Of a stretch of DNA of 64,000 bases, positions 183-58,736 are shown one piece after another. Each line of letters starts with the position of its first letter. Position 1 is the stretch's first letter. Position numbers and translations under genes: made by a program. Source of the stretch: an uncultured bacterium (lineage in GTDB: Bacteria; Sysuimicrobiota; Sysuimicrobiia; Sysuimicrobiales; Sysuimicrobiaceae). The notes beneath the pieces were generated by a model. That model was not told where the DNA came from. It ran no database searches and worked only from the letters and a program-made list of their open reading frames with translations. Location: contig CALIMJ010000038.1 in NCBI GenBank assembly GCA_938028835.1, positions 8,808 to 72,807 on the forward strand, written 5' to 3'.

Positions 183-851
183 TTGCTGTTCCGGGATCGG
201 CGTCACGCGGGCGCGGTCCTGGGGGACCTGGTGCGACGGCACCTGTCCGCGGACGGTGCCACCGCCCTGGTCCTCGGGATCCCGCGGGGAGGCGTGGTGG
301 TGGCCTCAGAGGTGGCCAGGGCCTTGGGCGCCGAGCTGGACCTGGCGGTCCCCCGGAAGCTGCGCGCGCCGTACAACCCTGAGCTCGCGATAGGCGCCGT
401 GGCGGAGGACGGCAGCGTGTACGTGGACGAGCGGGTCACCACCTCCCTGCGGGTGCCGCAGGAGTACCTGCAGCAGGAGGTGGCCTACCAGCTGGAGGAA
501 ATCCGCCGGCGGCTGCAGGCCTACCGCCAGGACCGGCCGGCCCCCGAGGTTTCGGGGCGCAGCGTGGTGCTGGTGGACGACGGCATCGCCACCGGTTCCA
601 CCATGGTGGCGGCGGTGAGGTCCGTCCGCCGCAGGGGCGCAGCGCGGGTGGTCGTGGCGGTCCCCGTGGCTCCTCCGGAGGCCGTCCGGCGGCTGCGGGC
701 GGAGGGCTGTGAGGTACTGTGCGTCCGGGAAGAGCCCCTGTTCGTGGCAGTGGGCCAGTTCTACGAGGACTTCACCCAGGTCTCGGACGAAGAGGTCCAG
801 GCGCTACTGCAGGAGTTCTGGCGGAAAAAGGAGGCGAGCGGTGGACCGTGA
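183..851 (+). CDS. Phosphoribosyltransferase-family protein (COG1926-like predicted PRTase)
   Basis: TTG start 6 nt after AGGAGGAGG RBS; PRPP-binding-like VVLVDDGIATGSTM motif; 222 aa. Confidence 0.7.
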   Translation: MLFRDRRHAGAVLGDLVRRHLSADGATALVLGIPRGGVVVASEVARALGAELDLAVPRKLRAPYNPELAIGAVAEDGSVYVDERVTTSLRVPQEYLQQEVAYQLEEIRRRLQAYRQDRPAPEVSGRSVVLVDDGIATGSTMVAAVRSVRRRGAARVVVAVPVAPPEAVRRLRAEGCEVLCVREEPLFVAVGQFYEDFTQVSDEEVQALLQEFWRKKEASGGP

Positions 852-2421
852 GGGCGTGCTGGACCGCCTGCGGGAGGCCGCGGCCGAGCTGGAAAGGCTG
901 GTGGAAGCCCTACCGGAGGGGCTGCTGCGGGAGCCCCTGGAGCGGTGGACCCCGCTGGACGTGGCCGCGCACCTGGTGGGCTGGAACGGGCACGTGGCAC
1001 GCGGCCTACAGCAGCTAGTCCAGGGGCAGGCCCCCTTCTACCTCCCCCAGGCGGAGCAGGACTACGCGGAGCTGAACGCAGAGTCGGTGGCGCGGTGGGG
1101 CGGACTGGACCGGGCCGCGCTGCTGGGTGAGCTGCGGGCGTCCCTAGACGAGCTCCTGGTGTTCCTGACGTCGCTGCCTGCGGAACTGTGGGATCGGGAC
1201 TTCGGGGTCCGGCACCGGGACCGGCCGGTCACCGTGCTGTGGACTGTTGGCGCGCTGGCGCAGGACTACGTCTCGCGTACGGAGCGGTTGCGGGCCTGGG
1301 CCGCCCGGCGCGGGATCGAGGTGCCGCGGCAGGGCCTGCTCCGCACGGCTCTGTACCAACGGCACGTGCAGCTTGGGGCCCGCAGGGTGCCGTTTGCGGG
1401 CTGGGAGATGCCCGTGCAGTACCGGGGGATCGTGGCGGAACACCAGGCGGTGCGGACCTCTGCGGGGCTGTTCGACGTCTCCCACATGGGCGAGATCCGC
1501 ATCTGGGGGCCCGGCGCGCTGGCGACCCTCGACCGCTTGCTGTGTAACGATCCCCGGCGGCTCGCGGTGGGCCAGGCCCTGTACACGCCCATGTGCCGCC
1601 CCAACGGCGGGGTGCTGGACGACCTGGTGGTCTGCCGGCTGGGCGAGGACCGGTATCTCCTGGTGGTGAACGCCAGCCGGCGGGAGGTGGACAGCCAGTG
1701 GGTACGGGACCACGCGCGGGACTGCCGCGTCCGGGACGTGTCGTTCTTCACGTCGCTGTTGGCGCTGCAGGGCCCGAGGGCCCAGGAGTTGCTGCAGCGC
1801 CTCACCGAGTTTGACCTGTCCGGCCTTCCCCGCTTCCGCCTGACGCCGCCGATCCGGGTGGCGGGGGTCCGGGCTGTGGTATCGCGGACTGGATACACGG
1901 GCGAGGACGGTTTCGAAATCCTCACGGACTGGCTCGACGCGCCGCGGGTGTGGGACGCCCTGGTGGAGCTGGGAGCAACCCCCTGCGGCCTGGGCGCCCG
2001 CGACACCCTGCGGCTGGAGGCAGGCTACCTGCTGTACGGCCAGGACATGGACGAGTCCACCACCCCGCTGGAGGCGGGTTTGGGCTGGACGGTGAAACTC
2101 GAGGGCCGGGAGTTCGTGGGTGCTGGTGCCCTGCGCCGCCAGAAAGCGGAGGGGGTGCGGCGGCGTCTGTGCGGGCTCGTGCTGGAGGGGAGGGCCATCG
2201 CACGGTCGGGCTGTGCGGTGCTCCGCGACGGCGAGGTGGTGGGGCGGGTGACCAGCGGTACCTTCGGCCCGTCGGTGCAGCGCAGCATCGCCCTGGCCTA
2301 CCTACCCACGGAGCTGTCCGCAGCCGGTACTCGGGTGGAGGTGGCAGTGCGGGATCAGCGGGTCGCCGCGGAGGTGGCCAGCCTGCCCTTCTACCGGAGG
2401 GCTTCACGCGGTGGGATATAG
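841..2421 (+). CDS. gcvT: DinB_2/MDMPI-N-like domain fused in frame to glycine cleavage T-protein (aminomethyltransferase)
   Basis: GTG 841 sits 6 nt after GGAGG (830-834). N-terminal ~160 aa carry the WTPLDVAAHLVGW MDMPI_N/DinB_2 signature. From ~aa 165 the sequence is canonical GcvT (LYQRHVQLGARRVPFAGWEMPVQY ... TGYTGEDGFEI ... GARDTLRLEAGY). No stop codon and no ATG or good RBS at the domain junction (only GTG 1321 with a weak SD). Confidence 0.7.
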   Translation: MDREGVLDRLREAAAELERLVEALPEGLLREPLERWTPLDVAAHLVGWNGHVARGLQQLVQGQAPFYLPQAEQDYAELNAESVARWGGLDRAALLGELRASLDELLVFLTSLPAELWDRDFGVRHRDRPVTVLWTVGALAQDYVSRTERLRAWAARRGIEVPRQGLLRTALYQRHVQLGARRVPFAGWEMPVQYRGIVAEHQAVRTSAGLFDVSHMGEIRIWGPGALATLDRLLCNDPRRLAVGQALYTPMCRPNGGVLDDLVVCRLGEDRYLLVVNASRREVDSQWVRDHARDCRVRDVSFFTSLLALQGPRAQELLQRLTEFDLSGLPRFRLTPPIRVAGVRAVVSRTGYTGEDGFEILTDWLDAPRVWDALVELGATPCGLGARDTLRLEAGYLLYGQDMDESTTPLEAGLGWTVKLEGREFVGAGALRRQKAEGVRRRLCGLVLEGRAIARSGCAVLRDGEVVGRVTSGTFGPSVQRSIALAYLPTELSAAGTRVEVAVRDQRVAAEVASLPFYRRASRGGI

Positions 2422-14663: not shown

Positions 14664-16298
14664 GTGACCCTTTCGAGCCGGCTGGTGGTGGTCACCCTCG
14701 TGGCGGTGATCCCCGTGGCCCTGAGCCTGGGCTACACGTACCGCCGGGAGCGAGCAAGACAGCTGGTCCTCGTGGAGGATCGGGCACGGCGATCCGCGGA
14801 GCTCCTCGCCGCGGACACCGGCCGCCTGCTGGAGGACGCCCGGCGGGAACTGGTGCGCCTGGGTCTGGTTGGTGCGGTCCGCGAGGGGGAGCGGGAGGGC
14901 TGCAACCAGCGGCTCGCCCGCACCGTGGCGGACGGCCAGCTGTTTGCAGGCGTCCTGAGGGTGGACCGCTGGGGTCGGCCGGTGTGCGCCTCCCACCCGA
15001 TGGCTGCCATGGGCTGGGCCAGCCAGCCCGCCAGCCGGGCGCTGGTGCGGACGGCGAGGTTCTCGGTGGGCGTGTACGTAGACGGAGGTAGTGCCTTGGG
15101 CCTAGCGGTGGCCGTACCCGTTCTGGACGCCAGGTACCGGTCGACCCTCGGCACCCTGCTGGCCGCAGTGCACCGAGACCGCCTGCAGGGCCTGGTACGC
15201 GGCCGGCCGGCCGTGGCGGGGGAGACCTGGGCGGTAGTGGACCCGCGCGGGCGGGTGCTGGCCGCCTGGCCAGAAGGCGCTGCCCAACGACGGAGACCCT
15301 GGGCGGTCTGGGACCGGCGCGACATCCCGTCGGACGGGGTAGCACAAGCCGGCTGGACTTCCGCAGCGACCTTCCGGCGGAGCAAGGGCCACGCGACGGC
15401 CCACGTGGCCCTGGCGGATGGCGCGGTCGTGGCGGTGTGGGCGGTATCCGAGGACGTGTTGTTCGCGGACCTGCGGGCCGCAGCGCGGAACAGCTGGCTG
15501 GCCCTGGGGTTGGCCGCGGTCTGCGCGGCGGCGGTGGTGTGGGGGGCGAGCCGGTGGCTGGTGTTGCAGCCCGTGCAGGCTCTCGTGCGGGCGGCCGAGC
15601 GGGTGCGCGCAGGGGACCTGTGGGCGCGTACGGGGCTGGCCTACGACGGCACCGAGCTGGGCTCCCTGGCCGCCGCCTTCGACGAGATGGTGGACGCCCT
15701 CCGGGCCCGGGAGGCGGAGCTCGCCGCGGCCTATGACACCACCCTGGAGGGGTGGTCCAGGGCCCTGGATCTGAGGGATCGCGAGACCCGGGGACACACC
15801 CTGCGCGTGGCCTCCCTAGCGGTGGAACTGGCCCGGGCCATGGGCGTGCCAGAGGATCAGGTGGTGCACCTTCGCCGGGGGGCCCTCCTGCACGACATCG
15901 GCAAGATGGCCATCCCCGACGAGATCCTCCACAAGCCGGGGCCCCTGACGCCCGAGGAGATGGCGGTCATGCGGCGCCACCCCCAGTACGCCTACGAGCT
16001 CCTGTGGCCCATCCACTACCTGCGTCCGGCCCTGGACATCCCCTACTGCCACCACGAGAGGTGGGACGGTACAGGCTACCCCCGCGGCCTGCGGGGAGAG
16101 GAGATCCCCCTGCCGGCCCGGATCTTCGCGGTGGTGGACGTCTGGGACGCGCTTTCGAACCCTCGGCCTTACCGGGCCGCCTGGCCGCGGGACCAGGTCC
16201 GGGCCTACCTGCAGGAGCAGGCCGGCCGCCAGTTCGACCCTGAGGTGGTGGCAGCGTTCCTGCGGCTGCTGGACGGCCGGGAAGCGGAAGCGAGCTAG
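14664..16298 (+). CDS. Membrane sensor - HAMP - HD-GYP c-di-GMP phosphodiesterase-type signalling protein
   Basis: GTG 6 nt after GGGGAGG; N-terminal TM helix, ~270-aa extracytoplasmic region, second TM, HAMP, then an HD-GYP domain (LHDIGKMAIPDEIL ... HHERWDGTGYPRGL). Confidence 0.75.
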   Translation: MTLSSRLVVVTLVAVIPVALSLGYTYRRERARQLVLVEDRARRSAELLAADTGRLLEDARRELVRLGLVGAVREGEREGCNQRLARTVADGQLFAGVLRVDRWGRPVCASHPMAAMGWASQPASRALVRTARFSVGVYVDGGSALGLAVAVPVLDARYRSTLGTLLAAVHRDRLQGLVRGRPAVAGETWAVVDPRGRVLAAWPEGAAQRRRPWAVWDRRDIPSDGVAQAGWTSAATFRRSKGHATAHVALADGAVVAVWAVSEDVLFADLRAAARNSWLALGLAAVCAAAVVWGASRWLVLQPVQALVRAAERVRAGDLWARTGLAYDGTELGSLAAAFDEMVDALRAREAELAAAYDTTLEGWSRALDLRDRETRGHTLRVASLAVELARAMGVPEDQVVHLRRGALLHDIGKMAIPDEILHKPGPLTPEEMAVMRRHPQYAYELLWPIHYLRPALDIPYCHHERWDGTGYPRGLRGEEIPLPARIFAVVDVWDALSNPRPYRAAWPRDQVRAYLQEQAGRQFDPEVVAAFLRLLDGREAEAS

Positions 16299-27329: not shown

Positions 27330-28109
27330 CTACCCCGGCCGCTCTAGACCAGGGATGCGGGCAAGGACCCACGCGCCGGCCTGGACCAGCCACCCCGGCT
27401 CGAGTCCGCCGGCGAGATCCTCGGGCGCTACGAGGTCCACCACGACACCTCCCACGTCCACCCGCAGGTTGACGAAGGGCCGGCGGGTGAGGGGGTTGGT
27501 GCGGCGGTGCAGCTGCTCCACGGTGCCCGCGATCCACGCGGTGGCGTCGGGTCTGTCCCCATCCGCGCCCTCGTCCAGGCTGGTGTGCCAGGTGCTGGCA
27601 AAGGTCCGGGGCGGCAGGCGGAACCCCGTGGCGTGCTGACTCGCGGCCCACTCCAGGCTGTCCCGGAAGCCCACCAGAGCGTCCGCGAAGCACGCCAGCT
27701 CCAGGTCCATGGACGCTGGCAGGGGAGGTAGGTACTGCACCACGCAAAGGAAGTCCACGAGGTCGCAGACCAGGGGGAACCGGCCGCTGTATGGCTCTGC
27801 GGGGTCTGTGGGGTCCAGCCACACCTCCCCCCACCCTTCCTCCGGGTTTTCAGGATCGTGTCCGACGGCGACGACCGCAGCCCGGTGACGGGCGCCGGTC
27901 TCAAAGAAGGGGAGCAGCCCGAGGGGCTGCCCGGTAGGCCCGAGCTCAGCCCAAAGCTCCACCCCGTCCCCCACCTGCCACCGCCGCAGGCCGAATCCGG
28001 GCTCCGCAGCGAGGGGTTGGCCCAGCCGCGCCGCTTGCTCCGCGAGGGCCTCCACGTCGGAGCCCCGTGGGAGCTGGAACCCCACGCAATCGAAGTACGT
28101 CATCATCAA
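27330..28109 (-). CDS. Hypothetical protein (no recognisable domain)
   Basis: 259-aa high-GC3 ORF starting MMMTYFDCVGF...; no motif I can assign. Confidence 0.45.
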   Translation of the reverse strand: MMMTYFDCVGFQLPRGSDVEALAEQAARLGQPLAAEPGFGLRRWQVGDGVELWAELGPTGQPLGLLPFFETGARHRAAVVAVGHDPENPEEGWGEVWLDPTDPAEPYSGRFPLVCDLVDFLCVVQYLPPLPASMDLELACFADALVGFRDSLEWAASQHATGFRLPPRTFASTWHTSLDEGADGDRPDATAWIAGTVEQLHRRTNPLTRRPFVNLRVDVGGVVVDLVAPEDLAGGLEPGWLVQAGAWVLARIPGLERPG

Positions 28110-28225: not shown

Positions 28226-28654
28226 TTAGCGGCGGCCCCCCCGACGGGAGCCGCGCCGCGTGGCCCCGCGCTTGGTGGCCGGCCGGCGGGCCGTACGCCG
28301 CGGAGCCGTCTTGCGGGCCGTGGCCGCCTTCCGCGCAGCCCGACGGGGCGCGGCCTTTTTCGCCGCAGTCTTCCGCGCGGGCTTGCGGGCCGGCTTCTTG
28401 GCGGCAGCCTTCCGGGCCGGCCGGGCGGCTTTCTTCGCGGGCCGCGCGGGCTTGCGGGCCGCGGGCCGGCGCTTGGGTGCCGCCGGCGCGGGCGCCGCGG
28501 GTGCAGGCTCCCCGGGCGCCGGCGTCATGGGCGCTTCCATTTCGCCGTACATGTCCTCCGCCTCCTCGTCCGTCGTCAACGACAGGTCGCCCTGTTCGTC
28601 GAACTCTTCTTCCGCGAGCTCCTCGTGGAATCCTCCTGGGCGGCGTTCCTCCAT
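28226..28654 (-). CDS. Disordered acidic-N / Lys-Ala-Pro-Arg-rich-C protein (histone-H1-like, putative nucleoid/DNA-binding)
   Basis: ATG 28654 after GGGAGG; acidic head (EELAEEEFDEQGDLSLTTDEEAEDMYGEMEAP), then ~90 aa of PAARKPARPAKKAARPARKAAAKKPARKP repeats. Confidence 0.45.
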   Translation of the reverse strand: MEERRPGGFHEELAEEEFDEQGDLSLTTDEEAEDMYGEMEAPMTPAPGEPAPAAPAPAAPKRRPAARKPARPAKKAARPARKAAAKKPARKPARKTAAKKAAPRRAARKAATARKTAPRRTARRPATKRGATRRGSRRGGRR

Positions 28655-29145
28655 GGCCACGCGCCTCCCCCACGAAACCGTCTTTCGGCACGATTCTAGT
28701 ACCCACAACGCCCGGGAGCTATCGGAAGCGTGCGGAAGTGGCTTGCGGTCTGTGCGGATCGCCTTCTGGCGCGACAGCGGTCCGGCCCCCAGGGACCAGG
28801 GGCCTCCTCCCGCCACCACCAGGGCGACGGCACACAGCAACAGGACCGTGTCGAGGACGAAGCCCCCAGGTAGCCGCGGGGCCAGAGCACCCGCAGAATC
28901 GCCACCCCCATCTCCGCGGCCAGCAGGGCCGCCACCGGCCGGGTCACGAGCTTCAGCAGGGGCAGCACTCCGCCTCTCAGTTCCGGCGCGGCCACCGCGC
29001 GCGCCAGCCCCTCAGGCGCCGGGAACCCCGTGGCCACGGCAGACCCACGAAGCGGTCCATGCCCAGTTCAGGTACCCGTAGGGGACGAACACGGTGGCCA
29101 GGGCCACCCGGACCAGCAGGAGGCCGAGATCCGTCCCCACCGCGC

Positions 29146-29763: not shown

Positions 29764-30852
29764 TTAACTCGCCAGGCCTCGGATCCGGAGCCTCAGGTCG
29801 TTGGGCGAGTCCGCATGCCGCAGCGCTTCCTCCACGGTCGCGAGCCCGCGCTGGATCAAGTCGTACAGGGCTTGATCGAAGGTCTGCATCCCGTCCTGGG
29901 TGCCTGCCTGGATGGCCTGCTTGATGGCCCCCACGTCACCCCTTCGCACCAGCTCCCGAATCCTGGGGGTGGCCACCAGCACCTCCAGCGCGGCCACCCG
30001 GCCGTTCCCGTCAGCCCGGGGGAGCAGCCGCTGGGAGACGATGCCCTCCAGGGTGATGGACAGCCTGTGCAGGATCTCCTGGGTGTGGTCGGGTGGGAAG
30101 AAGGCCAGCAGCCGTTCCAGCGCCTGGGCTGCGTTCATCGTGTGCAGGGTGCTGAGCACGAGGTGACCGGTCTCCGCGAAGTACAGGGCTGCGTCCGCGG
30201 ACTCCCGGTCCCGCATCTCCCCGATGAGCAGGACGTCTGGCGCCTGTCGCAGCGCGGCGCGGAGGGCGTGGTGGAAGGAGGGGGTGTCCGTGGCCACTTC
30301 CCGCTGGCTGACCAGGCTGCGCTTGTCGGGGTGCAGGAACTCGATGGGGTCCTCGATGGTCACGATGTGGCCGTCCTCGTGGGTGTTCCGGTGGTCGATC
30401 ATGGCCGCCAGGGTGGTGGACTTGCCGGAGCCGGTAGGGCCCGTGACCAGGACCAGCCCGCGCCTGCGCATGACCAGGTCCTTCAGGACCTCGGGGAGTC
30501 CGAGGTCTTCGAACGACGGGATGTCGGTCCGGACCCTCCGTGCCACGAGGGCAAGGGTCCCGCGCTGGCGGTACACGTTGACCCGGAACCGCCCCACGCC
30601 GGGCAGGCTGTACGCCAAATCCACGCTGTACTCCTGGCGCAGCTGCTCCAGCTGGCCCGCGTCCAGGATCTCCCGCACCAGGGCCTCGACCGCCGCGGGG
30701 CTGACCTTGGGCGTCTCCAGGGGCTGTAGCCGGCCATGGACCCGGTACGCGGGCGGGGACCCCACCTTCACGTAAAGGTCGCTGGCGTCCCGCTCGGCCA
30801 TACCCCGCAGCAGGTCCGCGGCCCGGAGCTCCGCAGGGGCCGCCGCGCTCAC
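29764..30852 (-). CDS. pilU: PilT-family type IV pilus retraction ATPase (PilU-like paralogue)
   Basis: GTG 30852 overlaps pilT stop (GTGA); Walker A GPTGSGKST, Asp box, Walker B, His box; 362 aa. Confidence 0.8.
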   Translation of the reverse strand: MSAAAPAELRAADLLRGMAERDASDLYVKVGSPPAYRVHGRLQPLETPKVSPAAVEALVREILDAGQLEQLRQEYSVDLAYSLPGVGRFRVNVYRQRGTLALVARRVRTDIPSFEDLGLPEVLKDLVMRRRGLVLVTGPTGSGKSTTLAAMIDHRNTHEDGHIVTIEDPIEFLHPDKRSLVSQREVATDTPSFHHALRAALRQAPDVLLIGEMRDRESADAALYFAETGHLVLSTLHTMNAAQALERLLAFFPPDHTQEILHRLSITLEGIVSQRLLPRADGNGRVAALEVLVATPRIRELVRRGDVGAIKQAIQAGTQDGMQTFDQALYDLIQRGLATVEEALRHADSPNDLRLRIRGLAS

Positions 30853-31943
30853 GGCGTCCCCCACGCGGAGGCCAAAGCCGCAGTGGGGGCTTCCCGGGCG
30901 AAGGCGTGCTTGTCCACCGCCCACCGGTAGGCCACCTCCGCGGTGATCCGGCCCGTCTTCAGCAGGTGCCGCAGGCTCTGGTCCAGGCTCTGCATCCCGT
31001 CCTTCAGCCCCGTCTGGATGGCGGAGGGGATCTGGTGGACCTTGTTCTCCCGGATCAGGTTGCGGACGGCGGGCGTGGCCACCATGACCTCCACCGCGGG
31101 CACCCGGCCGGTGCCGTCCGCGGTGGGCAGCAGCAGCTGCGCGACCACGCCCACCAGGGATTCGGCCAGCTGGACCCGGACCTGGTCCTGCTGGTGGCTG
31201 GGGAACACGTCGATGATCCGGTTGACGGTCTGTGCGGCGCTACTGGTGTGCAGGGTGCTCAGCACCAGGTGGCCCGTCTCCGCCGCGGTCAGCGCCAGGG
31301 CAATCGTCTCCAGATCCCGCATCTCTCCCACCAGGATCACGTCCGGGTCCTCGCGGAGGGCGGCCCGCAGGGCCGCCGCGAAGGACCGGGCGTGCACCCC
31401 CACCTCCCGCTGGTTGACGATGCTGCGCTTGTGCGTGTGCACGAACTCGATGGGGTCCTCCAGGGTGATGATGTGGGCGGTGCGGCGCTGGTTGATCAGG
31501 TCCACCATAGCCGCCAGGGTAGTGGATTTCCCGGCACCGGTGGGGCCCGTGACCACGATGAGGCCCCGGTCCCGCAGGGCCAGGTCCTCCAGCACCGGCG
31601 GCAGACCGAGCTCCCGGATGGTCTTGATGCGCGAGGGGATGAGTCGGAACACCGCCCCCTCGCCCAGCCGCTGGAAGAACACGTTGACCCGAAACCGCCC
31701 CAGGTTCGCGAGCTCCACGGAGAAGTCCAGGTCCAGGTGTTCCTCGAACCGCGCCTTCTGTGCGTCCGTGAGGATGTCGTACACCATGGCGTGCACGTCC
31801 TCCCGGGAGAGGGGGGGCCAGCCCTCTACGTCCACGAGCTCGCCGTTCACGCGGAGCTTGGGTGGCACTCCCACGGTGAGGTGGAGGTCGGAGGCGGCCT
31901 TCTGCTTGGCCAGGATCAGCAGTTCCGTAATGTCCAACGTCAT
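30849..31943 (-). CDS. pilT: Twitching motility ATPase PilT
   Basis: GPTGAGKSTT, HIITLEDPIEF, VILVGEMRD, AAETGHLVLSTLHT; 364 aa; ATGA overlap with upstream gene. Confidence 0.85.
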   Translation of the reverse strand: MTLDITELLILAKQKAASDLHLTVGVPPKLRVNGELVDVEGWPPLSREDVHAMVYDILTDAQKARFEEHLDLDFSVELANLGRFRVNVFFQRLGEGAVFRLIPSRIKTIRELGLPPVLEDLALRDRGLIVVTGPTGAGKSTTLAAMVDLINQRRTAHIITLEDPIEFVHTHKRSIVNQREVGVHARSFAAALRAALREDPDVILVGEMRDLETIALALTAAETGHLVLSTLHTSSAAQTVNRIIDVFPSHQQDQVRVQLAESLVGVVAQLLLPTADGTGRVPAVEVMVATPAVRNLIRENKVHQIPSAIQTGLKDGMQSLDQSLRHLLKTGRITAEVAYRWAVDKHAFAREAPTAALASAWGTP

Positions 31944-33436
31944 CCCTCCAGGACCGGTACGAGGAACTCAGGGGCTACGCGCAGCTCCTCCACGAGGCGA
32001 CGGGCCGAGGCCTCCAAGGGCGCCCCTTGCCCCTGGGCGGGAGCCCACTCGTACGCCACCGCGTGGCTGGAAAAGCCCGTGTACCGGCAGCCCTCGCAGC
32101 CCCCGGGAGAGGCCCAGCGCACGGGGACCTGAGGGGTCGGCCACGGGGGTGGGGCGTGGTGCACCGTGGCGCACCGACACAGTGCCGGCACGGGCACGAC
32201 GGACAGGACCCCGCGGACGGCCACAACCGCGGCTTCCGCACCCACAGCGGCGTGGACATGACGGGCCCGGTAACCCGGCAGGCCCAGGACGAGCCTCTGG
32301 CCCGGCCACCACGCCAGGAGGGGCTGGCGCAGGGCGCTGAGCGCCGGCGTGTCCGCCACCAGGGCGTCGGGACGTGCCTGCTGCCACAGGGGTGCGTCAG
32401 CTTCGGGGCATTCCACCACGCCCGGGATCGGGCGAACCCCACCGGCCCCGGCCAGCACGACGATCCCGCCCCATCGAGAGGCCAGCCGCGCCGCCAGGGA
32501 CCGCAGCAGGCGGGCCCGCAGCCCCGCCTCCGAGCAGGCCACCACCAGAAGCCCGCCCCCGTGCAGAGCCTGGAGGGCGGAGTCCCACACCTCCGCCGGC
32601 AGGCCCACGTCGTCCTGGAGCGGGTCCGCAGGAATCGGGCTGAGTGGGCCCGCCAGCCCTGCTCCCCAGCGCGTCCGGACCGGTCGCAGCGCCGCCTCCA
32701 CCGACCGGTCGGCCAGGACCACCTCGAACGCGAGCACGCCCTGGGAGCCCGCGCGATCCGCCAGTGCAGCGAGGGAGTCCCAAGGGACCTGCGGACCGTC
32801 GGCGGGGAACACTCCCGTAGGGGTGCGGTAGCGGACCCGCACCGTCCTCCCGGGGAGCGGCTCTACGTACACGTGGGTGGCTCCCTTCTGGGCCGCGTTG
32901 CTGAGCGCAAGGCGCAAGGCCAGGTCGTTATTCTGCTCCGGGGGCGGTGCCCCCGCCAGTAAGTCCAGGACCTCCCGGATGTTGGGGGCCAGGGCCACCA
33001 CGGGACAGGGCCGCAGCCCGGTGAGCTGCTGGACTTCCGCCAGCACCCGGTGGTCGGTGGGGTCGGCTAGGGCCATCGCCAGCTCACCCTGAGCTGCGAG
33101 GAGCGGTAGGACCCCGAGCCGGCGCTGTGCTTCCGCCCGCAGCAGCTTGAGCGCCTCGGGATCAACCATGTCGGGCCGCAGGTGTACGTAGGGCAGCTCC
33201 AGCTGCGTGCTGAGGGCCCACGCCACGTCGTCCTCTGTAGCGAAACCGAGGCGGACCAGGGCCTCGCCCAGGCGGATGCCGTGCTGCAGCTGGAACGTCA
33301 CCGCATGCTCCAGCTGCTGCGGGCTGATCACACGGGCCTGGAGGAGGATCTCCCCCAGGGGCCGGTGTGGGGTGGGTACCACGGGTCGGACCTCCACCTC
33401 GCTCGCCAAGGTGGGGTGTAGCAAGTTCCTTGCCAC
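31940..33436 (-). CDS. PilB/GspE-family pseudo-ATPase: N-terminal T2SSE_N/MshEN-like domain, degenerate ATPase core, retained C-terminal tetracysteine motif
   Basis: N-terminus has two 24-residue MshEN-like motifs (PLGEILLQARVISPQQLEHAVTFQ; RLGEALVRLGFATEDDVAWALSTQ). The Walker A position reads LLVVACSEAGLRARL instead of GPTGSGKTT. C-terminus keeps CRC...CEGCRYTGFS. 498 aa, first gene of the pilT operon. Confidence 0.6.
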   Translation of the reverse strand: MARNLLHPTLASEVEVRPVVPTPHRPLGEILLQARVISPQQLEHAVTFQLQHGIRLGEALVRLGFATEDDVAWALSTQLELPYVHLRPDMVDPEALKLLRAEAQRRLGVLPLLAAQGELAMALADPTDHRVLAEVQQLTGLRPCPVVALAPNIREVLDLLAGAPPPEQNNDLALRLALSNAAQKGATHVYVEPLPGRTVRVRYRTPTGVFPADGPQVPWDSLAALADRAGSQGVLAFEVVLADRSVEAALRPVRTRWGAGLAGPLSPIPADPLQDDVGLPAEVWDSALQALHGGGLLVVACSEAGLRARLLRSLAARLASRWGGIVVLAGAGGVRPIPGVVECPEADAPLWQQARPDALVADTPALSALRQPLLAWWPGQRLVLGLPGYRARHVHAAVGAEAAVVAVRGVLSVVPVPALCRCATVHHAPPPWPTPQVPVRWASPGGCEGCRYTGFSSHAVAYEWAPAQGQGAPLEASARRLVEELRVAPEFLVPVLEG

Positions 33437-33509: not shown

Positions 33510-33584
33510 TGGCTCCGGCGGTAGGACTCGAACCTACAACCCCCTGGTTAACAGCCAGGTGCTCTACCATTGAGCTACGCCGGA
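33510..33584 (-). tRNA. tRNA-Asn (anticodon GTT)
   Basis: Manual cloverleaf: acceptor UCCGGCG/CGCCGGA, anticodon loop CUGUUAA, T-arm GTAGGTTCGAGTCCTAC, discriminator G plus CCA. Confidence 0.85.
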
Positions 33585-33662
33585 ACGCGCGGGCAACGCG
33601 CCCTCCATCTTACGCGGGGCGGGGTGCGGTGTCAAAGGGGGCCGGTGAGGGAGGTGAGGTGC

Positions 33663-35897: not shown

Positions 35898-38540
35898 TCA
35901 GTCGTCCTGCAGGGCTTCCCGCACCCGGGCCACCAGTTCGCTGATGAGGAACGGCTTCTGCAGGAAGCCCTTCGCCCCGCGGGCCACAGCGTCGCGGGCG
36001 GCACGCTCGTGTGTGTACCCGCTGGTCAGGAGGATCCGGGCCTCCGGGTCCAGGGTTCGCAGGGCGTCAAAGGTCTGGGTGCCGGAGAGGCCGGGCATGG
36101 TCATGTCCAGGATCACCAGGTCGATCCCCCCCGCGTGCTCCTGGTACAGGCGCAGCGCTTCCTGGCCGTCCGTGGCCACCAGCACCCGGTACCCGCGGCG
36201 GGTCAGCACGTCCCGGAGCAGGTTGCACAGAGGCTCCTCGTCGTCCACCACCAGGATGGTCTCCCCAGCTCCTCCGTCCACCTCCGCCTCCCCCGGCTCC
36301 TCGGGTTCCCCCGCGCCGCTCGCGACCGGCAGGTACATCCGCACCGCGGTGCCCTTCCCTACTTCGCTGTCCACCTCCAGAAAGCCCCCGTGGTTGCGGA
36401 CGATGCCGTACACCATGGCCAGCCCCAGCCCGGTCCCCTTTCCGGGTCCCTTGGTGGTGAAGAAGGGCTCGAACATGCGGGCCCTCACGTGCTCGTCCAT
36501 CCCCACGCCCGTGTCCCGCACGGTCAGGCACACGTACGGCCGCAGGACCGGCGGTTCCCCGGAGGTGGGGTCGGGTGCGATGACCGGTTGCAGGATCAGC
36601 TCGAGGACGCCGCCGTCCGGCATGGCGTCGCGGGCGTTCATGCACAGGTTGAGGACCGCTTGGTGGAGCTGGCTCGCGTCCCCCTCCACCATGGGCAGGT
36701 CGGAGGGGAAGCGCGTGCGCAGCTCGATGCGGGGGTCCAGGGTGCTGCGGAACAGCTCCGTCACCTCGGAGCACAGGCGGGCCAGGTCCAGGGGACGGAC
36801 CTCGAACTTACCCTTGCGGGCGAACCCCAGCAGCTGGCGGGTCAGCTCGGAGGCGCGCAGGGCAGACCGCTCCAGGACATCAAAGTACTGCTGCAGCTCC
36901 GGGCTGCTGGGCAGTTCCTCCTTCAGCAGCCCCAGGTAGCCCACGATGGTACCGAGGATGTTGTTGAAGTCGTGGGCGATGCCGCCCGCGAGGGTGCCGA
37001 TGCTCTCCATCTTCTGTGCCTGCAGGAGCTCCTCTTCCAGGCGCTTGTTGGCGGTGATGTCGCGGTACACACCGAGCACGCCCACCGGCCTTCCCTGGGC
37101 GTCCCGCTGGACCGAGAGGGAGGCGGACACCCAGCTGACTTGGCCGTCCGCGGTCCGGTGCTGCAGCTCCCCGCGCCAGATCCCGTCCCGCAGGAGGTGC
37201 TGGCGCAGGCGCGCGAGGCTGTCCCGGGCCTCGGGCTGCACCAGGGCGTCGAAGTCGCGGCCCACCACGTCGCTGGCCAGCCACCCGTACAGAGCCTCCG
37301 CGGCACGGTTCCAGTACACCACCCGCCCGTCCCAGTCCGTGGCTACGATGGCGTCCTGCACCTGTTCCAGCAGGCTGGCCTGGAAGTGCAGCATCTCCGC
37401 CACGCGCCGGTGCTCCGTGAGATCCCGCACGATCCCCAGCAACATGGGTTTGCCCCGGAGGACCACCCGGTTGGCCTGCAGCTCGCACTCCAGGCGGCTT
37501 CCGTCGGGGCGCACACCCACGAAGCCCACCGCCTCCCCAGGGGACGGGGAGGAGAGCCGTTCCCGCAGGTAGTTGGCGAGCTTGGGGTGGTCCTCGGGCG
37601 CGCACAACGCCAGGGGGCCGAGCCGGCCCACGCACTCCGCAGACGTGGTGCGGAACATCTGCAGGAACCGGCGGTTGACGAAGCGGAACAGCCCGTCCTC
37701 CAGGAGGAACACCCCGTCGGGGGATTCCTCGATGAGGGTACGGTAGCGGGCTTCCGACTCCCGCAGCTCCTCCTCCAGGTGGCGCTGCTCGGTGATGTCC
37801 AGGGCGATGGCCAGCACGAACTGGAGATGTCCCTGGGGGTGACGCATGGGTGCCAGCAGCACCTCCAGGACCCTGGAGGGGGAGGCTGGGCGGCGGGCGT
37901 CCGTGGGCGGCCACGCGAAGTTCTGCAGCTTGACCGCCTGCCCCCGCAGCGCTTCCTCCAAGGCGCTGCGGTGCTGGGGGCCGAACACGGAGCCACCCCG
38001 GAGTGCGTTGGGCGGATCCCCGGACGGAGCCGGGCCTGGACCGAACAGCTCCACCCACGCGCGGTTGGTGGCGATGACCCGGCCGTCCAAGTCGAGCGCC
38101 TGTGCGGGCAGGGGGAAGTCGTGCAGGGCCTGTCGGAGGTGGGAAGCCAGTTCCCGCGCGCCCCCCGCCCCTGGCGGTGTGATGGACCACACCAGAGACC
38201 TGCCCGCGGCCTCGGCGCGGGCGGAGGCCTGCACCACAGTCCCGTCTGCGCGGCGGAGCCCCAGCTCCCCGGTCCACCGCTTGAGCCGCCGCGCCTCCGC
38301 CAGCACGTGGAGGGCCTCGGCAGAGCCGTCCGTCAGCGCGCGGAACGGCAGGCCCACCACCGATCCTGGCTCGAGGCCCACCAGGTCGGCCGCGGGGCGG
38401 TTGGCGGCCACCACCACACCCTGCTCGTCCACCTCCAGCACCGCGTCCGAGACGGCCCGGAGCACCGCCGCTAGGCGCTCGGAAGCTTCCGCCGCCCTAG
38501 GGTCGTCGACGTGTCTTTTCCGCCGCCACAACATCCCCAC
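35898..38540 (-). CDS. Multi-PAS hybrid sensor histidine kinase with C-terminal receiver
   Basis: Four PAS-like segments, HisKA (AHDFNNILGTIVGY), HATPase_c (GTGLGLAMV), REC (ILVVDDEEPL ... DLVILDMTMPGLSG); 880 aa. Confidence 0.8.
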   Translation of the reverse strand: MGMLWRRKRHVDDPRAAEASERLAAVLRAVSDAVLEVDEQGVVVAANRPAADLVGLEPGSVVGLPFRALTDGSAEALHVLAEARRLKRWTGELGLRRADGTVVQASARAEAAGRSLVWSITPPGAGGARELASHLRQALHDFPLPAQALDLDGRVIATNRAWVELFGPGPAPSGDPPNALRGGSVFGPQHRSALEEALRGQAVKLQNFAWPPTDARRPASPSRVLEVLLAPMRHPQGHLQFVLAIALDITEQRHLEEELRESEARYRTLIEESPDGVFLLEDGLFRFVNRRFLQMFRTTSAECVGRLGPLALCAPEDHPKLANYLRERLSSPSPGEAVGFVGVRPDGSRLECELQANRVVLRGKPMLLGIVRDLTEHRRVAEMLHFQASLLEQVQDAIVATDWDGRVVYWNRAAEALYGWLASDVVGRDFDALVQPEARDSLARLRQHLLRDGIWRGELQHRTADGQVSWVSASLSVQRDAQGRPVGVLGVYRDITANKRLEEELLQAQKMESIGTLAGGIAHDFNNILGTIVGYLGLLKEELPSSPELQQYFDVLERSALRASELTRQLLGFARKGKFEVRPLDLARLCSEVTELFRSTLDPRIELRTRFPSDLPMVEGDASQLHQAVLNLCMNARDAMPDGGVLELILQPVIAPDPTSGEPPVLRPYVCLTVRDTGVGMDEHVRARMFEPFFTTKGPGKGTGLGLAMVYGIVRNHGGFLEVDSEVGKGTAVRMYLPVASGAGEPEEPGEAEVDGGAGETILVVDDEEPLCNLLRDVLTRRGYRVLVATDGQEALRLYQEHAGGIDLVILDMTMPGLSGTQTFDALRTLDPEARILLTSGYTHERAARDAVARGAKGFLQKPFLISELVARVREALQDD

Positions 38541-56452: not shown

Positions 56453-57210
56453 GGGACGTTCCCGCCATCCGGGTGGAGAACCTGACGGTGTCCTACCGGG
56501 GCAAGCCGGCCATCCGGAACGTGAGCGTTGTCGTGGGGCAAGGGCTGCGGGTGGGGCTCATCGGCCCCAACGGCGCGGGCAAGTCCACCCTGCTGCGGGC
56601 TTTGGTGGGGCTTCTGGTGCCGGACACCGGGCGGGTGGAGCTGTTTGGCCGGCCCGTCCGGGAGGCGCGCAAGCTGGTGGCCTACGTGCCGCAGCGCAGC
56701 GAAGTGGACTGGGACTACCCCGTGGTGGCGGAGGAGGTGGTCCTCATGGGACGGTTCCCCCACGTGGGCTGGGTGCGCCGGCCGCGGCCGGAGGACCGGC
56801 GCGTGGCGCGCGAGTGCCTGCGGCAGGTAGGGATGGAAGCCCTGGCGCACCGTCAGATCGGACAGCTGTCCGGGGGCCAGCAGCAGCGAGTTTTCCTGGC
56901 GAGGGCTCTGGCCCAGGAAGCCCGGCTGCTCCTCCTGGACGAGCCCTTCGTGGGTGTGGACGCAGCCACCGAGGAGGCCATCTACGGTCTGCTGGACCGG
57001 TTGCGGGAGGAGGGGCGGACGGTGGTGGTGGCCACCCACGACCTGAGCCGCGCCCAGACCGCTTTCGACCGGCTGCTGCTGCTGAACCAGCACGTGGTGG
57101 CCTACGGCCCGCCCGCGGAGGTGTTCCAGCCTGCGCTGCTGCAGCGCACCTACGGGGGCCGGCTCACCCTCCTGGAGGTGGCGGACCAGAGGATGGCGAT
57201 CAGGCCATGA
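56449..57210 (+). CDS. Metal ABC transporter ATP-binding protein
   Basis: GTGA overlap; Walker A GPNGAGKST, signature LSGGQQQR, Walker B LLLLDEP; 253 aa. Confidence 0.85.
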   Translation: MRDVPAIRVENLTVSYRGKPAIRNVSVVVGQGLRVGLIGPNGAGKSTLLRALVGLLVPDTGRVELFGRPVREARKLVAYVPQRSEVDWDYPVVAEEVVLMGRFPHVGWVRRPRPEDRRVARECLRQVGMEALAHRQIGQLSGGQQQRVFLARALAQEARLLLLDEPFVGVDAATEEAIYGLLDRLREEGRTVVVATHDLSRAQTAFDRLLLLNQHVVAYGPPAEVFQPALLQRTYGGRLTLLEVADQRMAIRP

Positions 57211-58736
57211 GCCTGTGGGAGCTGGTGGTCGAACCCCTGCAGTACACCTTCATGCAGCGGGCCCTGACGGCCGCCCTACTGGTGGGCAGCATCTGCGCGG
57301 TGCTCAGCTGCTTCCTGCTGGTCAAGCGGTGGGCCCTGTTGGGCGACGCCATCTCGCACGCGGTGCTTCCAGGGGTGGCCCTCGCGTACCTGTTGGGCCT
57401 GCCCTTCTTCGTGGGGGCGGTGACCACGGGAATTTTGACCGCGCTGGGGATCTCCGCGGTGGAGCGGCACACCCGGATCAAGGAGGACTCCGCGATGGGC
57501 ATCGTGTTCACGGGCGCCTTTGCCCTGGGCTTCGTCCTGGTGAGCCGCATCCGCAGCAAGGCGGTGGACCTGTTCCACATCCTGTTCGGGAACGTGCTGG
57601 GGGTCTCGGACTCGGACCTCGTGCTGACCGCGGTCACGGGCGCGGTGGTGTTGGGAGCGGTCCTGCTGCTGTACAAGGAGCTGGTCCTGTGGACGTTCGA
57701 CCCGGTCGCCGCCGCGGCCATGGGGCTGCCCACGGGCGTGCTGCACTACACCCTCATGTTCCTGCTGTCGCTCACCATCGTGGCGTCCCTGCAAACCGTC
57801 GGCATCGTCCTGGTCGTGGCCATGCTGATCACCCCCGGCGGCGTGGCCTTCCTCCTGACGGACCGCATGTCGCGGATGCTCGGCCTGGCGGTGGCGGTCG
57901 GGGTGGTGTCCACCGTCACAGGCCTGTACCTCTCCTACTACCTGAACGTGGCCTCCGGTGCCACCATGGTCCTCGTGGCGAGCCTGTTGTTCTGCGCGGC
58001 GGTGCTCCTGGGCCCCCGGGAGGGGTTGGTGTGGGAGTGGATGCGGCGCAGGCGCCTGGCGGAGGAACGGGTGGCGGAGGACTTCCTCAAACAGGCCTAC
58101 GTGCTCGGCCCGGAGGGCTGGGCACCGGAACGGGTGGCGGAGCGGGTGGGCCTTTCGGCGCGCCGGGCCTGGCAGCTCCTGCGGAGGCTGCAGAAGGCGG
58201 GGCTGGTGCGCTGGGACGGGTCACGGGTGAGCCTGAGCGAGGCCGGGAGGGCGAGGGCGGTGGAGCTGGTCCGTTCGCACCGCCTGTGGGAACGGTACCT
58301 GGTGGAACAGGCGGGCCTGTCGTGGGCGGAGGTCCACGCGGAGGCGGAGCGGCTCGAGCACCTGAGCCCGACGGAGCTGGCGGCCCGGTTGGACGAGGCC
58401 CTGGGCCATCCCCGGCGGGACCCCCACGGGTCGCCGATCCCCCCCGAGGTCGCAGGCGCGGTGCCTTCGGTCCGCCTGCTGGATCGCGCACCGGGCGAGC
58501 GGGTGGAGGTGCGGGAGGTGGAGGACGAGGACCCGGAGGTCCTGCGGGCCCTCGAGGCGCGCGGGGTGCGGCCGGGCGTCCGTCTGGAGGTGTTGGAACG
58601 GGCTCCGGGTGGCCTGCGGGTGCGGTGCGACGGAGAGGAGGTGTGGCTGGACGCGCACCTGGCGGCCGCGGTGTACACGCAGGCGGAGGCAGGGTCCAGG
58701 GACGACGACGGGATGTCTGAGCTCCAAGGTGTGTAG
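57207..58736 (+). CDS. ABC-3 metal permease (MntB/ZnuB-like) fused to a C-terminal DtxR-family repressor domain
   Basis: ATGA overlap with the ATPase gene. First ~280 aa are an ABC-3 permease (8 TM). The remaining ~225 aa are a complete DtxR-like module: HTH, VRSHRLWERYLVEQAGLSWAEVHAEAERLEHLSPTE, DPHGSPIP, and an FeoA-like C-domain. No stop separates the two. Confidence 0.75.
   Translation: MSLWELVVEPLQYTFMQRALTAALLVGSICAVLSCFLLVKRWALLGDAISHAVLPGVALAYLLGLPFFVGAVTTGILTALGISAVERHTRIKEDSAMGIVFTGAFALGFVLVSRIRSKAVDLFHILFGNVLGVSDSDLVLTAVTGAVVLGAVLLLYKELVLWTFDPVAAAAMGLPTGVLHYTLMFLLSLTIVASLQTVGIVLVVAMLITPGGVAFLLTDRMSRMLGLAVAVGVVSTVTGLYLSYYLNVASGATMVLVASLLFCAAVLLGPREGLVWEWMRRRRLAEERVAEDFLKQAYVLGPEGWAPERVAERVGLSARRAWQLLRRLQKAGLVRWDGSRVSLSEAGRARAVELVRSHRLWERYLVEQAGLSWAEVHAEAERLEHLSPTELAARLDEALGHPRRDPHGSPIPPEVAGAVPSVRLLDRAPGERVEVREVEDEDPEVLRALEARGVRPGVRLEVLERAPGGLRVRCDGEEVWLDAHLAAAVYTQAEAGSRDDDGMSELQGV

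Follow-up and report, generated by a model that had tools for sequence, protein, structure and literature searches.

The window considered here is a stretch of 64,000 nucleotides (nt) from an uncultured hot-spring bacterium of the family Sysuimicrobiaceae, phylum Sysuimicrobiota (contig CALIMJ010000038.1), with a G+C content of ~70%. Three minus-strand open reading frames (ORFs) in a row fill positions 29764-33436 and show a codon-position G+C of the coding type. The second and third encode predicted motor ATPases of the PilT family, termed PilT and PilT2. The first encodes a protein, termed pseudo-PilB, which appears to combine an N-terminal module of the kind that binds cyclic diguanylate (c-di-GMP) with the body of the type IV pilus ATPase PilB, the catalytic site of which has been lost. 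It may serve as a regulator of the two motors encoded behind it.

The three genes are chained by 4-nt overlaps, as a sequence-only reading of this DNA had described. The stop of pseudo-PilB overlaps the start of PilT in an ATGA at 31940-31943 (ctg gag gga TGA / ATG acg), and PilT overlaps PilT2 in a GTGA at 30849-30852 (acg ccG TGA gcg). The same reading began the first gene at 33436, and this start is no longer favoured. The GTG codon at 33382 is preferred because it is preceded by a GGAGG sequence at 33391-33395, with a spacer of 8 nt, and because the homologues are 476-483 amino acids (aa) in length; a database protein that is 100% identical to pseudo-PilB (P0001) has 480 aa. The protein is therefore probably ~480 aa long. 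Residue numbers used here follow the 498-aa ORF that starts at 33436, and subtraction of 18 gives the position in the 480-aa protein. The G+C content at third codon positions (GC3) is 0.85 for pseudo-PilB versus 0.90-0.93 for the neighbouring genes.

The N-terminal motifs of pseudo-PilB, assigned earlier to MshEN, pass the curated cutoffs of the relevant profiles. Residues 26-78 match the NCBIfam model NF053729 ‘c-di-GMP_motif’ (58.2 bits vs a cutoff of 38, E 5e-16) and residues 79-162 match Pfam MshEN, PF05157 (52.8 bits vs 23.1, E 4e-14). In the MshEN domain of Vibrio cholerae, two 24-residue motifs and a 5-residue spacer bind one molecule of c-di-GMP (PMC5013675). The layout in pseudo-PilB is exactly 24+5+24, consisting of motif I (PLGEILLQARVISPQQLEHAVTFQ), the spacer LQHGI and motif II (RLGEALVRLGFATEDDVAWALSTQ). 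The tandem arrangement that had been claimed stands, as does the consensus in motif II, bar a Val at position 17. The RLG ascribed to motif I does not, as this motif begins with PLG and has an Arg at the usual Gly-10 and a Val at position 21. These deviations are allowed by or close to the relaxed pattern of Wang et al. 2016, [RKPN]hGxxhhxx[GAS]hh..., with the exception of the Arg at position 10. Asn occurs at position 10 in aligned Geobacter PilB sequences, and motif I begins with (R/K)LG in most relatives of pseudo-PilB. The GSPII-C domain of PilF likewise has a Pro at motif position 1 and still binds c-di-GMP, with a dissociation constant (KD) of ~0.5 uM (PMC11731258). In an alignment of 27 family members that includes the window protein, the 24+5+24 layout is conserved, the Leu, Gly and Gln residues known as c-di-GMP contacts from MshEN vary little or not at all, and motif II carries a signature of the family’s own, (S/T)EDD(V/I/L)AWAL. 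The majority-residue frequency in these members is 0.73 for the c-di-GMP module and 0.72 for MshEN_C, with 0.56-0.61 for the N2D and C-terminal (CTD) domains. Binding of c-di-GMP by pseudo-PilB is plausible on these grounds.

The C-terminal two-thirds of the protein can be assigned, from profiles and a predicted model, to a diverged PilB/GspE N2D followed by a RecA-like CTD. A profile of 15 orthologues (A1) was run against the PDB with hmmsearch; its positions 6-447 match residues 333-833 of Thermus thermophilus PilF (domain E 1.9e-26), a region that comprises the third GSPII domain and the entire ATPase core. The C-terminal part of this profile alone matches the core of V. cholerae EpsE (E 8e-7). 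HHalign of the pseudo-PilB C-terminal profile (A2) with a profile of canonical PilBs (A6) gave a probability of 98.7% (E 3e-16, 290 columns). The AlphaFold2 model of pseudo-PilB has a predicted local distance difference test score (pLDDT) of 87.6 and a predicted template modelling score (pTM) of 0.82, and its best Foldseek matches in the PDB are GspE, PilB and PilF (E 3e-18 to 1e-14, probability 1.00). Of the two profile searches that the earlier reading had proposed, the one for MshEN passes its cutoff. The one for T2SSE (PF00437) fails for the window protein, in which the Pfam scan finds no match even at E<=1, and 22 of the 27 family members reach E<=1e-3 for this domain (best E 3e-28). The TIGR02538 model reaches 48.5 of the 675 bits set as its cutoff, and these come from the N-terminus only. 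The N2D signature is kept, with GATHVYVEP...VRVRYR as the counterpart of ASDIHxEP...RVRYRxDG in PilB. The C-terminal tetracysteine reported earlier is also in place (C420, C422, C447 and C450), the first pair being CxC in the window protein and not CxxC. C420, C447 and C450 are invariant in all 27 members; C422 is invariant in a core subfamily of 15, while the members with an N-terminal receiver domain (REC-type members) have the second Cys at CxxC spacing.

The catalytic elements have fared differently from the fold. The Walker A motif GPTGSGK(T/S) is replaced by ACSEAGLR in the window protein, with all three P-loop glycines gone and the invariant Arg307 at the position of the Walker Lys. The Asp box EDPVE has become GAGGV and is followed by a deletion of ~9-11 residues. 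The Walker B sequence DPDxIMVGEIRD has become RPDALVADTPAL, with the catalytic Glu absent, and the His box TGHLVLSTLHT has become PGQRLVLGLPGY, with both His absent. The alignment to PilB/GspE thus bears out the expectation that the Walker A and B motifs, the Asp box and the His box are all lost. The pattern GxxxxGK(S/T) is absent from all 26 extracted orthologues, and [GA][CS]x[DEG]xxxR stands in the place of Walker A in 27/27 sequences. In the consensus of the REC-type members, a VDD-like remnant of Walker B survives together with a single His-box histidine. As four defining ATPase features fail while the fold persists, pseudo-PilB is classed from its alignments as a derived pseudo-enzyme, predicted to be unable to bind or hydrolyze ATP in the canonical way.

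Both downstream genes are predicted to encode intact PilT-family ATPases, and each product scores above the cutoff of 319 bits for TIGR01420, the PilT/PilU family (Table 1). PilT has intact motifs (Walker A GPTGAGKS, Walker B DPDVILVGEMRD and His box TGHLVLSTLH) and carries AVRNLIRE, which resembles the AIRNLIRE feature of PilT retraction motors. The Walker A, Walker B and His box of PilT2 are likewise intact, with RIRELVRR where AIRNLIRE is expected. The third gene had been called PilU-like; it is indeed a second PilT paralogue, and it is PilU-like only in being without the AIRNLIRE motif. Its orthology extends across the family (58% to the PilT2 of locus L029 vs 46% to the PilT of the same locus).

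Table 1. Features of the pseudo-PilB operon and its upstream region. Positions are those of the window.
Feature	Position	Strand	Basis and remarks
Pseudo-PilB gene (probable start)	31940..33382	-	~480 aa; longest ORF extends to 33436 (498 aa)
MshEN_N c-di-GMP module (predicted), 53 residues (26-78)	33203..33361	-	Translation and NF053729
MshEN_C / N1D subdomain, residues 79-162	32951..33202	-	Pfam PF05157, E 4e-14
N2D-like domain, approximate bounds	32597..32929	-	Profile search, HHalign, AlphaFold, Foldseek
Degenerate ATPase core (CTD), approximate bounds	32192..32596	-	Alignments
Pseudo-Walker segment LLVVACSEAGLRARL	32507..32551	-	Translation; aligns to LVTGPTGSGKTTTL
Tetracysteine (Zn-site) region CRC...(24 aa)...CEGC	32087..32179	-	Translation
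PilT, 364 aa	30849..31943	-	TIGR01420, 498 bits; start overlaps pseudo-PilB stop
PilT2, second PilT paralogue, 362 aa from GTG 30852	29764..30852	-	TIGR01420, 458 bits
tRNA-Asn(GTT)	33510..33584	-	ARAGORN; 128 nt upstream of pseudo-PilB start
Sigma-70-like promoter match TTGACA-17-TAAGAT (10/12), upstream of tRNA	33607..33635	-	Consensus match only

The peptides quoted in the sequence-only reading for the pseudo-Walker segment, the tandem motifs and the tetracysteine region all translate at the positions given in Table 1.

Pseudo-PilB is a member of a conserved family with at least 27 members across the Sysuimicrobiota. A word-indexed search of 5.8 billion proteins returned ~16 full-length relatives, all from metagenome-assembled genomes (MAGs) labelled ‘Armatimonadota’ or from hot-spring metagenomes. 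When the C-terminal profile was run exhaustively as a hidden Markov model against 1.84 billion cluster representatives, five of these fell in the core family at E<1e-30; below a sharp drop in score lie more distant proteins whose Walker A is replaced in the same manner, e.g., VGCTDPWVRSTLLH. One genome per GTDB species was scanned for (S/T)EDD(V/I/L)AWAL, which gave 24 loci, and with a single signature peptide this distribution is a lower bound. These loci include Candidatus (Ca.) Tepidifontimicrobium thermophilum, a close relative of the window organism with a protein that is 87% identical to that of the window, Ca. Sysuimicrobium calidum, five Ca. Fervidifonticultor species and Ca. Geohabitans tengchongensis. 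The NCBI taxonomy places Tepidifontimicrobium, Fervidifonticultor and Geohabitans all in Candidatus Sysuimicrobiota (formerly CSP1-3). The closest relatives aside, identity to the window protein is 26-41%. A strict regular expression for the tandem motifs under-counts the family (15/26), and the 27-member alignment is the better evidence. Against close orthologues, the ratio of nonsynonymous to synonymous substitution rates (dN/dS) is 0.29-0.37 for pseudo-PilB, 0.07-0.13 for PilT and 0.09-0.12 for PilT2. From a dN/dS of ~0.3 it follows that the pseudo-PilB gene is in all likelihood functional, under a purifying selection that is more relaxed than that on the true motors.

Degenerate relatives of these ATPases are also found outside the family. 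Among the 150 best T2SSE-like matches to the degenerate profile (P0027-P0171), about one third are without a canonical Walker A. They include a class in which the Walker Lys is replaced by Arg, GPxxSGR[ST] (e.g., P0036, P0039, P0040, P0061 and P0062), and other Walker-A-less proteins (such as P0031, P0055 and P0058). This suggests that pseudo-ATPases of the PilB/GspE superfamily may be commoner than recognized. A further protein of 482 aa (P0017) has MshEN and a degenerate core with GPPRAGGS at Walker A and no tetracysteine, and is distinct from the pseudo-PilB family.

The association with PilT, which the sequence-only reading had proposed to check in relatives, is conserved far outside the close relatives. 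By tblastn, 23 of the 24 species loci have a PilT orthologue as the next gene downstream of pseudo-PilB, the exception being L026, where the order is PilT, PilT2, kinase, pseudo-PilB. PilT2 follows PilT in most loci, and tblastn finds no match to PilT2 in L016, L020, L022 and L035; three of the fetched loci end at contig ends. In L010 and L011 the module is kept despite flanks wholly unlike those of the window.

The relatives also place the module among signalling genes. A Pfam scan found MshEN in 27/27 members and Response_reg, an N-terminal receiver domain, in 18/27, and the consensus receiver retains the DD...D...S...K residues. The REC-MshEN-pseudoATPase architecture is taken as ancestral because it is the commonest. 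Same-strand genes directly upstream in the relatives encode hybrid sensor kinases in which PAS, GAF or Cache precedes HisKA, HATPase and REC, REC-HD-GYP phosphodiesterases and stand-alone REC proteins, often joined by overlapping stops and starts. An HD-GYP domain is found in 14/27 loci, mostly directly upstream (tblastn). In L010 and L029 the module has a GGDEF gene as its immediate neighbour, L031 gives a weak match, and in L009 such a gene lies ~5 kb downstream. The typical operon of a REC-type relative reads hybrid sensor kinase, REC-HD-GYP, stand-alone REC, REC-MshEN-pseudoPilB, PilT, PilT2.

The subfamily of the window (Sysuimicrobiaceae) appears to have lost both the receiver domain and the operon HD-GYP. 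The earlier reading had drawn support from an HD-GYP sensor at 14664-16298. This is a genuine gene (HAMP and HD_5, PF13487, 138.9 bits, with LLHDIGK ... HHERWDGTGYP), and its tie to the operon is not upheld: it lies 15 kb off behind unrelated housekeeping genes, and with dnaX and metabolic genes in between, a functional link has no support from gene order. By gene context, the predicted link to c-di-GMP is nonetheless stronger than was known to that reading, as REC-HD-GYP is encoded in the same operon in relatives. A multi-PAS-HisKA-HATPase-REC kinase is encoded at 35898-38540 (-), 2.5 kb upstream of pseudo-PilB, and is conserved in all core loci; a gene of the isocitrate/isopropylmalate dehydrogenase family (Pfam Iso_dh) and an AI-2E transporter gene lie between the two. 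The core of this kinase scores 57-66 bits to the operon kinases of REC-type loci versus 250-470 bits among those kinases themselves. It is thus only distantly similar to them, though it may be what is left of the kinase found at the head of REC-type operons.

Canonical PilBs are also present in the phylum. A search seeded with the PilB of Ca. Geohabitans (L027), a divergent neighbour of the module with intact GPTGSGKT, EDPVE and DPDIIMLGEVRD, returned many canonical PilBs from MAGs of ‘Armatimonadota’/Sysuimicrobiota. Most of the canonical loci inspected are pilB-pilT(395 aa)-pilC-pilin clusters. Ca. Fervidifonticultor tertius (JAVKIY) holds both the module (L031) and a canonical PilB-PilT(395 aa)-PilC-pilin cluster (L041), and F. 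quartus (JAVKJV) holds the module (L029) and a canonical PilB without adjacent pil genes (L043). At the level of the phylum, a genome can thus, by its gene content, hold a canonical PilB and the pseudo-PilB module together, and the idea that pseudo-PilB replaces a missing PilB was rejected at that level on the coexistence in these two genomes.

In the PilB of Ca. Geohabitans tengchongensis (L027:3-1364, -), the second c-di-GMP motif is degenerate (QHLARVILEMEV...). This gave rise to the idea that c-di-GMP sensing was delegated to pseudo-PilB as canonical PilBs lost their motifs. It was rejected as a general rule, as most of the canonical PilBs of the phylum that were inspected keep the full tandem motif. 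A divergent protein of 737-762 aa with tetratricopeptide repeat (TPR), MshEN and T2SSE domains is encoded next to the canonical pilB-pilT-pilC-pilin cluster in L036-L042 (e.g., L038:1393-3669, -). Its GPTGSGKT is intact, which makes it the third type of MshEN ATPase seen in the Sysuimicrobiota.

The interpretation offered by the sequence-only reading, a pseudo-ATPase that serves as a c-di-GMP receptor and regulates retraction, is supported overall, and the computational checks that it had named came out on its side. It is proposed, with moderate confidence, that pseudo-PilB is a c-di-GMP-gated, and ancestrally also phosphorylation-gated, pseudo-motor that regulates PilT and PilT2. It would be a c-di-GMP receptor that steers pilus dynamics through two co-translated motors of the PilT family. 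Pseudo-PilB would dock at the place of PilB on the pilus base through N1D and the N2D/CTD ring, and its occupancy by c-di-GMP would set whether the docking site is blocked or freed. This would pick either canonical PilB, for extension, or PilT/PilT2, for retraction, to gain the machine. The ATPase-dead PilB body would act as a plug, and co-expression with PilT would tilt the machine to retraction. In the ancestral protein, input from a phosphorelay would be combined with c-di-GMP under local control, while the receiver-less subfamily of the window would respond to c-di-GMP only. The binding of c-di-GMP, the docking at or competition for the platform and the effect on retraction are the steps that we infer. 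Competition at the PilC/PilM platform is favoured because the docking parts (N1D/MshEN_C, N2D-CTD and the Zn site) are kept and because the motors for extension and for retraction are believed to vie for a single site (Koch et al. 2021, as cited in PMC11656802). As a precedent, nucleotide-free PilB serves as a signalling state in Myxococcus xanthus, where the Walker A mutant K327A up-regulates exopolysaccharide (EPS) (PMC11656802). A broader version of this proposal is put forward only tentatively, at somewhat less than an even chance. It holds that pseudo-PilB represents a phylum-wide class of pseudo-motors that gave up ATP hydrolysis for good and serve at the type IV pilus base as a clutch that integrates signals. 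Their inputs would be c-di-GMP and, in most lineages, a phosphorelay, fed by the hybrid kinase and REC-HD-GYP of the operon, and they would grant the machine to PilT/PilT2 or withhold it.

Several points weigh against regulation of PilT and PilT2 by competition at the platform. All carriers are uncultivated MAGs. The Pfam scan found no other pilus genes in the 64-kb window, and the coexisting PilB is known from other members of the phylum. Motif I is off-consensus (P1, R10, V21), so the affinity for c-di-GMP could be low or absent, and the canonical PilBs of the phylum mostly keep their tandem MshEN motifs, which leaves the need for a separate receptor not obvious. With the receiver and the operon HD-GYP gone from the window subfamily, the signalling context is borrowed from relatives. 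The results also fit platform competition and direct binding to PilT/PilT2 alike.

Such direct binding is the main rival to platform competition. Pseudo-PilB would then be a positive adaptor or scaffold that binds PilT and/or PilT2, as a stacked ring or through an N1D tether, and, in response to a change in c-di-GMP or phosphorylation, recruits them to the pilus base or activates them there. The strict adjacency to pilT in 23/24 loci and the translational coupling by 4-nt overlaps in the window speak for this, although such adjacency is equally expected of an antagonist that is co-expressed with the retraction motors. PilT is without an N1D of its own, while MshEN_C is highly conserved in the family. 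Heteromeric PilB-PilT complexes are not known. The adaptor is considered unlikely, if a serious contender. Dependence of one motor protein on another does have a precedent in PilU, the function of which depends on PilT and which is described as a PilT-dependent accessory motor (PMC6762196). An output outside the pilus is more doubtful still. Here pseudo-PilB would serve c-di-GMP-responsive signalling towards exopolysaccharide, biofilm or another end, and the PilT genes would be mere neighbours left from a duplicated pilB-pilT pair. The M. xanthus Walker A mutant raises EPS independently of pili (PMC11656802), and with pilB-pilT-pilC as the canonical order, pseudoPilB-pilT may be a relic of duplication. 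However, the adjacency to PilT persists down to ~28% identity of pseudo-PilB while the flanks change, both PilT paralogues are under strong purifying selection, and EPS or glycosyltransferase genes are not consistently near the loci examined.

The remaining alternatives concern pseudo-PilB itself. It might still be an enzyme, an unusual assembly or retraction motor with a non-canonical nucleotide site in which Arg307 stands in for the Walker Lys with the help of acidic residues near the old Walker B. The invariance of this Arg, which is followed by Ser/Thr in most REC-type members, the retained N2D arginines (VRVRYR), and the VDD-like remnant and single His-box His of REC-type members are in keeping with this. 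On the other side, bulky or charged residues have replaced all three P-loop glycines in 27/27 members, the window protein has neither the acidic residues of the Asp box nor the catalytic Glu nor either histidine of the His box, the core carries the ~9-11-residue deletion, and dN/dS is 3-4 times that of the real motors. Residual catalysis is accordingly judged very improbable. Hardly credible at all is a relic or an artefact, in which the gene would be a pilB pseudogene in decay, or an error of assembly or a frameshift would hide a normal Walker A. Pseudo-PilB does evolve faster than its neighbours and has the lower GC3. Nevertheless, at least 27 species or MAGs, assembled independently, carry the ORF intact, at a conserved length and with an identical pattern of degeneration, the N-terminal domains show high conservation and the AlphaFold model is confident. 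The pseudogene is ruled out by the dN/dS of ~0.3 together with the phylum-wide conservation of the ORF; a frameshift, which the earlier reading had allowed could hide a Walker A, is ruled out by the same degenerate segment in 27 independent orthologues and by the same ratio.

Other features of the window stand apart from this argument. Upstream of the operon, one sigma-70-like promoter match was found before the tRNA-Asn gene versus 0.1 expected in shuffled sequences, and no terminator-like site was seen between tRNA-Asn and the start of pseudo-PilB. The operon may be co-transcribed with tRNA-Asn by read-through from the tRNA promoter. Downstream of the operon, the ORFs 28226-28840 (-) and 27330-28109 (-) have no Pfam match; one encodes 204 aa with a C-terminal tail very rich in Lys, Ala, Arg and Pro, and the other encodes 259 aa and is conserved in position in relatives. 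The ORF 56814-58736 (+) joins an ABC-3 metal-transporter permease to Fe_dep_repr_C, the C-terminal metal-binding and dimerization domain of iron-dependent repressors, and FeoA. Provided that the ORF is called correctly, transporter and sensor would be fused here in an unusual way. The glycine-cleavage T-protein ORF at 709-2421 (+) has a DinB_2/MDMPI_N-like N-terminal region (residues 54-184), which reflects a fusion or else a start placed too far upstream, in overlap with the ORF 183-851.

The components of the proposed system have counterparts elsewhere. The MshE/PilB ATPases (V. cholerae MshE, Clostridium perfringens PilB2 and M. xanthus PilB; PMC5013675) share with pseudo-PilB the 24+5+24 module, MshEN_C, N2D, CTD and Cys4, and are encoded beside pilT, as in many pilB-pilT clusters. 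They differ in that they are active and that c-di-GMP tunes an extension motor, whereas pseudo-PilB would be a receptor without a catalytic output of its own. Fusions of MshEN to REC and HD-GYP have been mentioned in general terms (Wang et al. 2016, PMC5013675). T. thermophilus PilF (PDB 6f8l, 5oiu, 6ejf) is the best relative of solved structure by profile and among the best Foldseek matches, but it differs in its three GSPII domains and its canonical Walker A and is the essential motor for assembly and DNA uptake. The nucleotide-free K327A form of M. xanthus PilB is likewise an ATPase-dead PilB body with regulatory output, which shows that such a body can carry information. It is a laboratory mutant of a real motor with EPS as its output, while pseudo-PilB is a separate paralogue in which the dead state would have been fixed by evolution. 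FimX, which acts with PilZ in Pseudomonas and Xanthomonas, is a pseudo-enzyme c-di-GMP receptor for the type IV pilus motor (PMC11656802; PMC8389850), although it is of degenerate GGDEF-EAL origin, acts positively on PilB and has no link to PilT. The Acinetobacter baylyi proteins CpiA and TfpB (PMC8213720) are extra proteins that modulate the choice of motor, TfpB being a PilB paralogue. However, neither senses c-di-GMP through MshEN; CpiA is a small, unrelated inhibitor, and the ATPase of TfpB is active. The operon resembles PilT/PilU pairs in its two adjacent PilT-family genes, the first with an AIRNLIRE-like motif (AVRNLIRE) and the second without it, but no such pair is known to be headed by a pseudo-PilB, and the phylum has a further PilT (395 aa) in its canonical pil cluster.

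The sequence-only reading knew of no characterized system with such an architecture, and the literature checked agrees: neither an MshEN-PilB paralogue devoid of Walker A nor such a pilT operon was found described in a search that included the 2024 PilB review (PMC11656802) and the MshEN paper (PMC5013675) and covered subscription journals thinly. The Sysuimicrobiota/CSP1-3 genome papers that were checked make no mention of pili or PilT. These comparisons suggest that the parts (MshEN receptors, PilB/PilF, PilT/PilU and FimX-type pseudo-enzymes) are known singly, and that their combination was previously undescribed.

The proposal bears on two questions of the field, namely how cells choose between the extension and the retraction motor at the base of the type IV pilus, and how the binding of c-di-GMP by MshEN becomes an output. 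If true, it would add a new regulatory principle, in which a pseudo-enzyme derived from a motor serves as a switch, and it would offer a simple experimental handle, with MshEN signalling uncoupled from ATP turnover. It would also be the first hint of regulated pilus dynamics in the Sysuimicrobiota (CSP1-3), a globally abundant uncultivated phylum.

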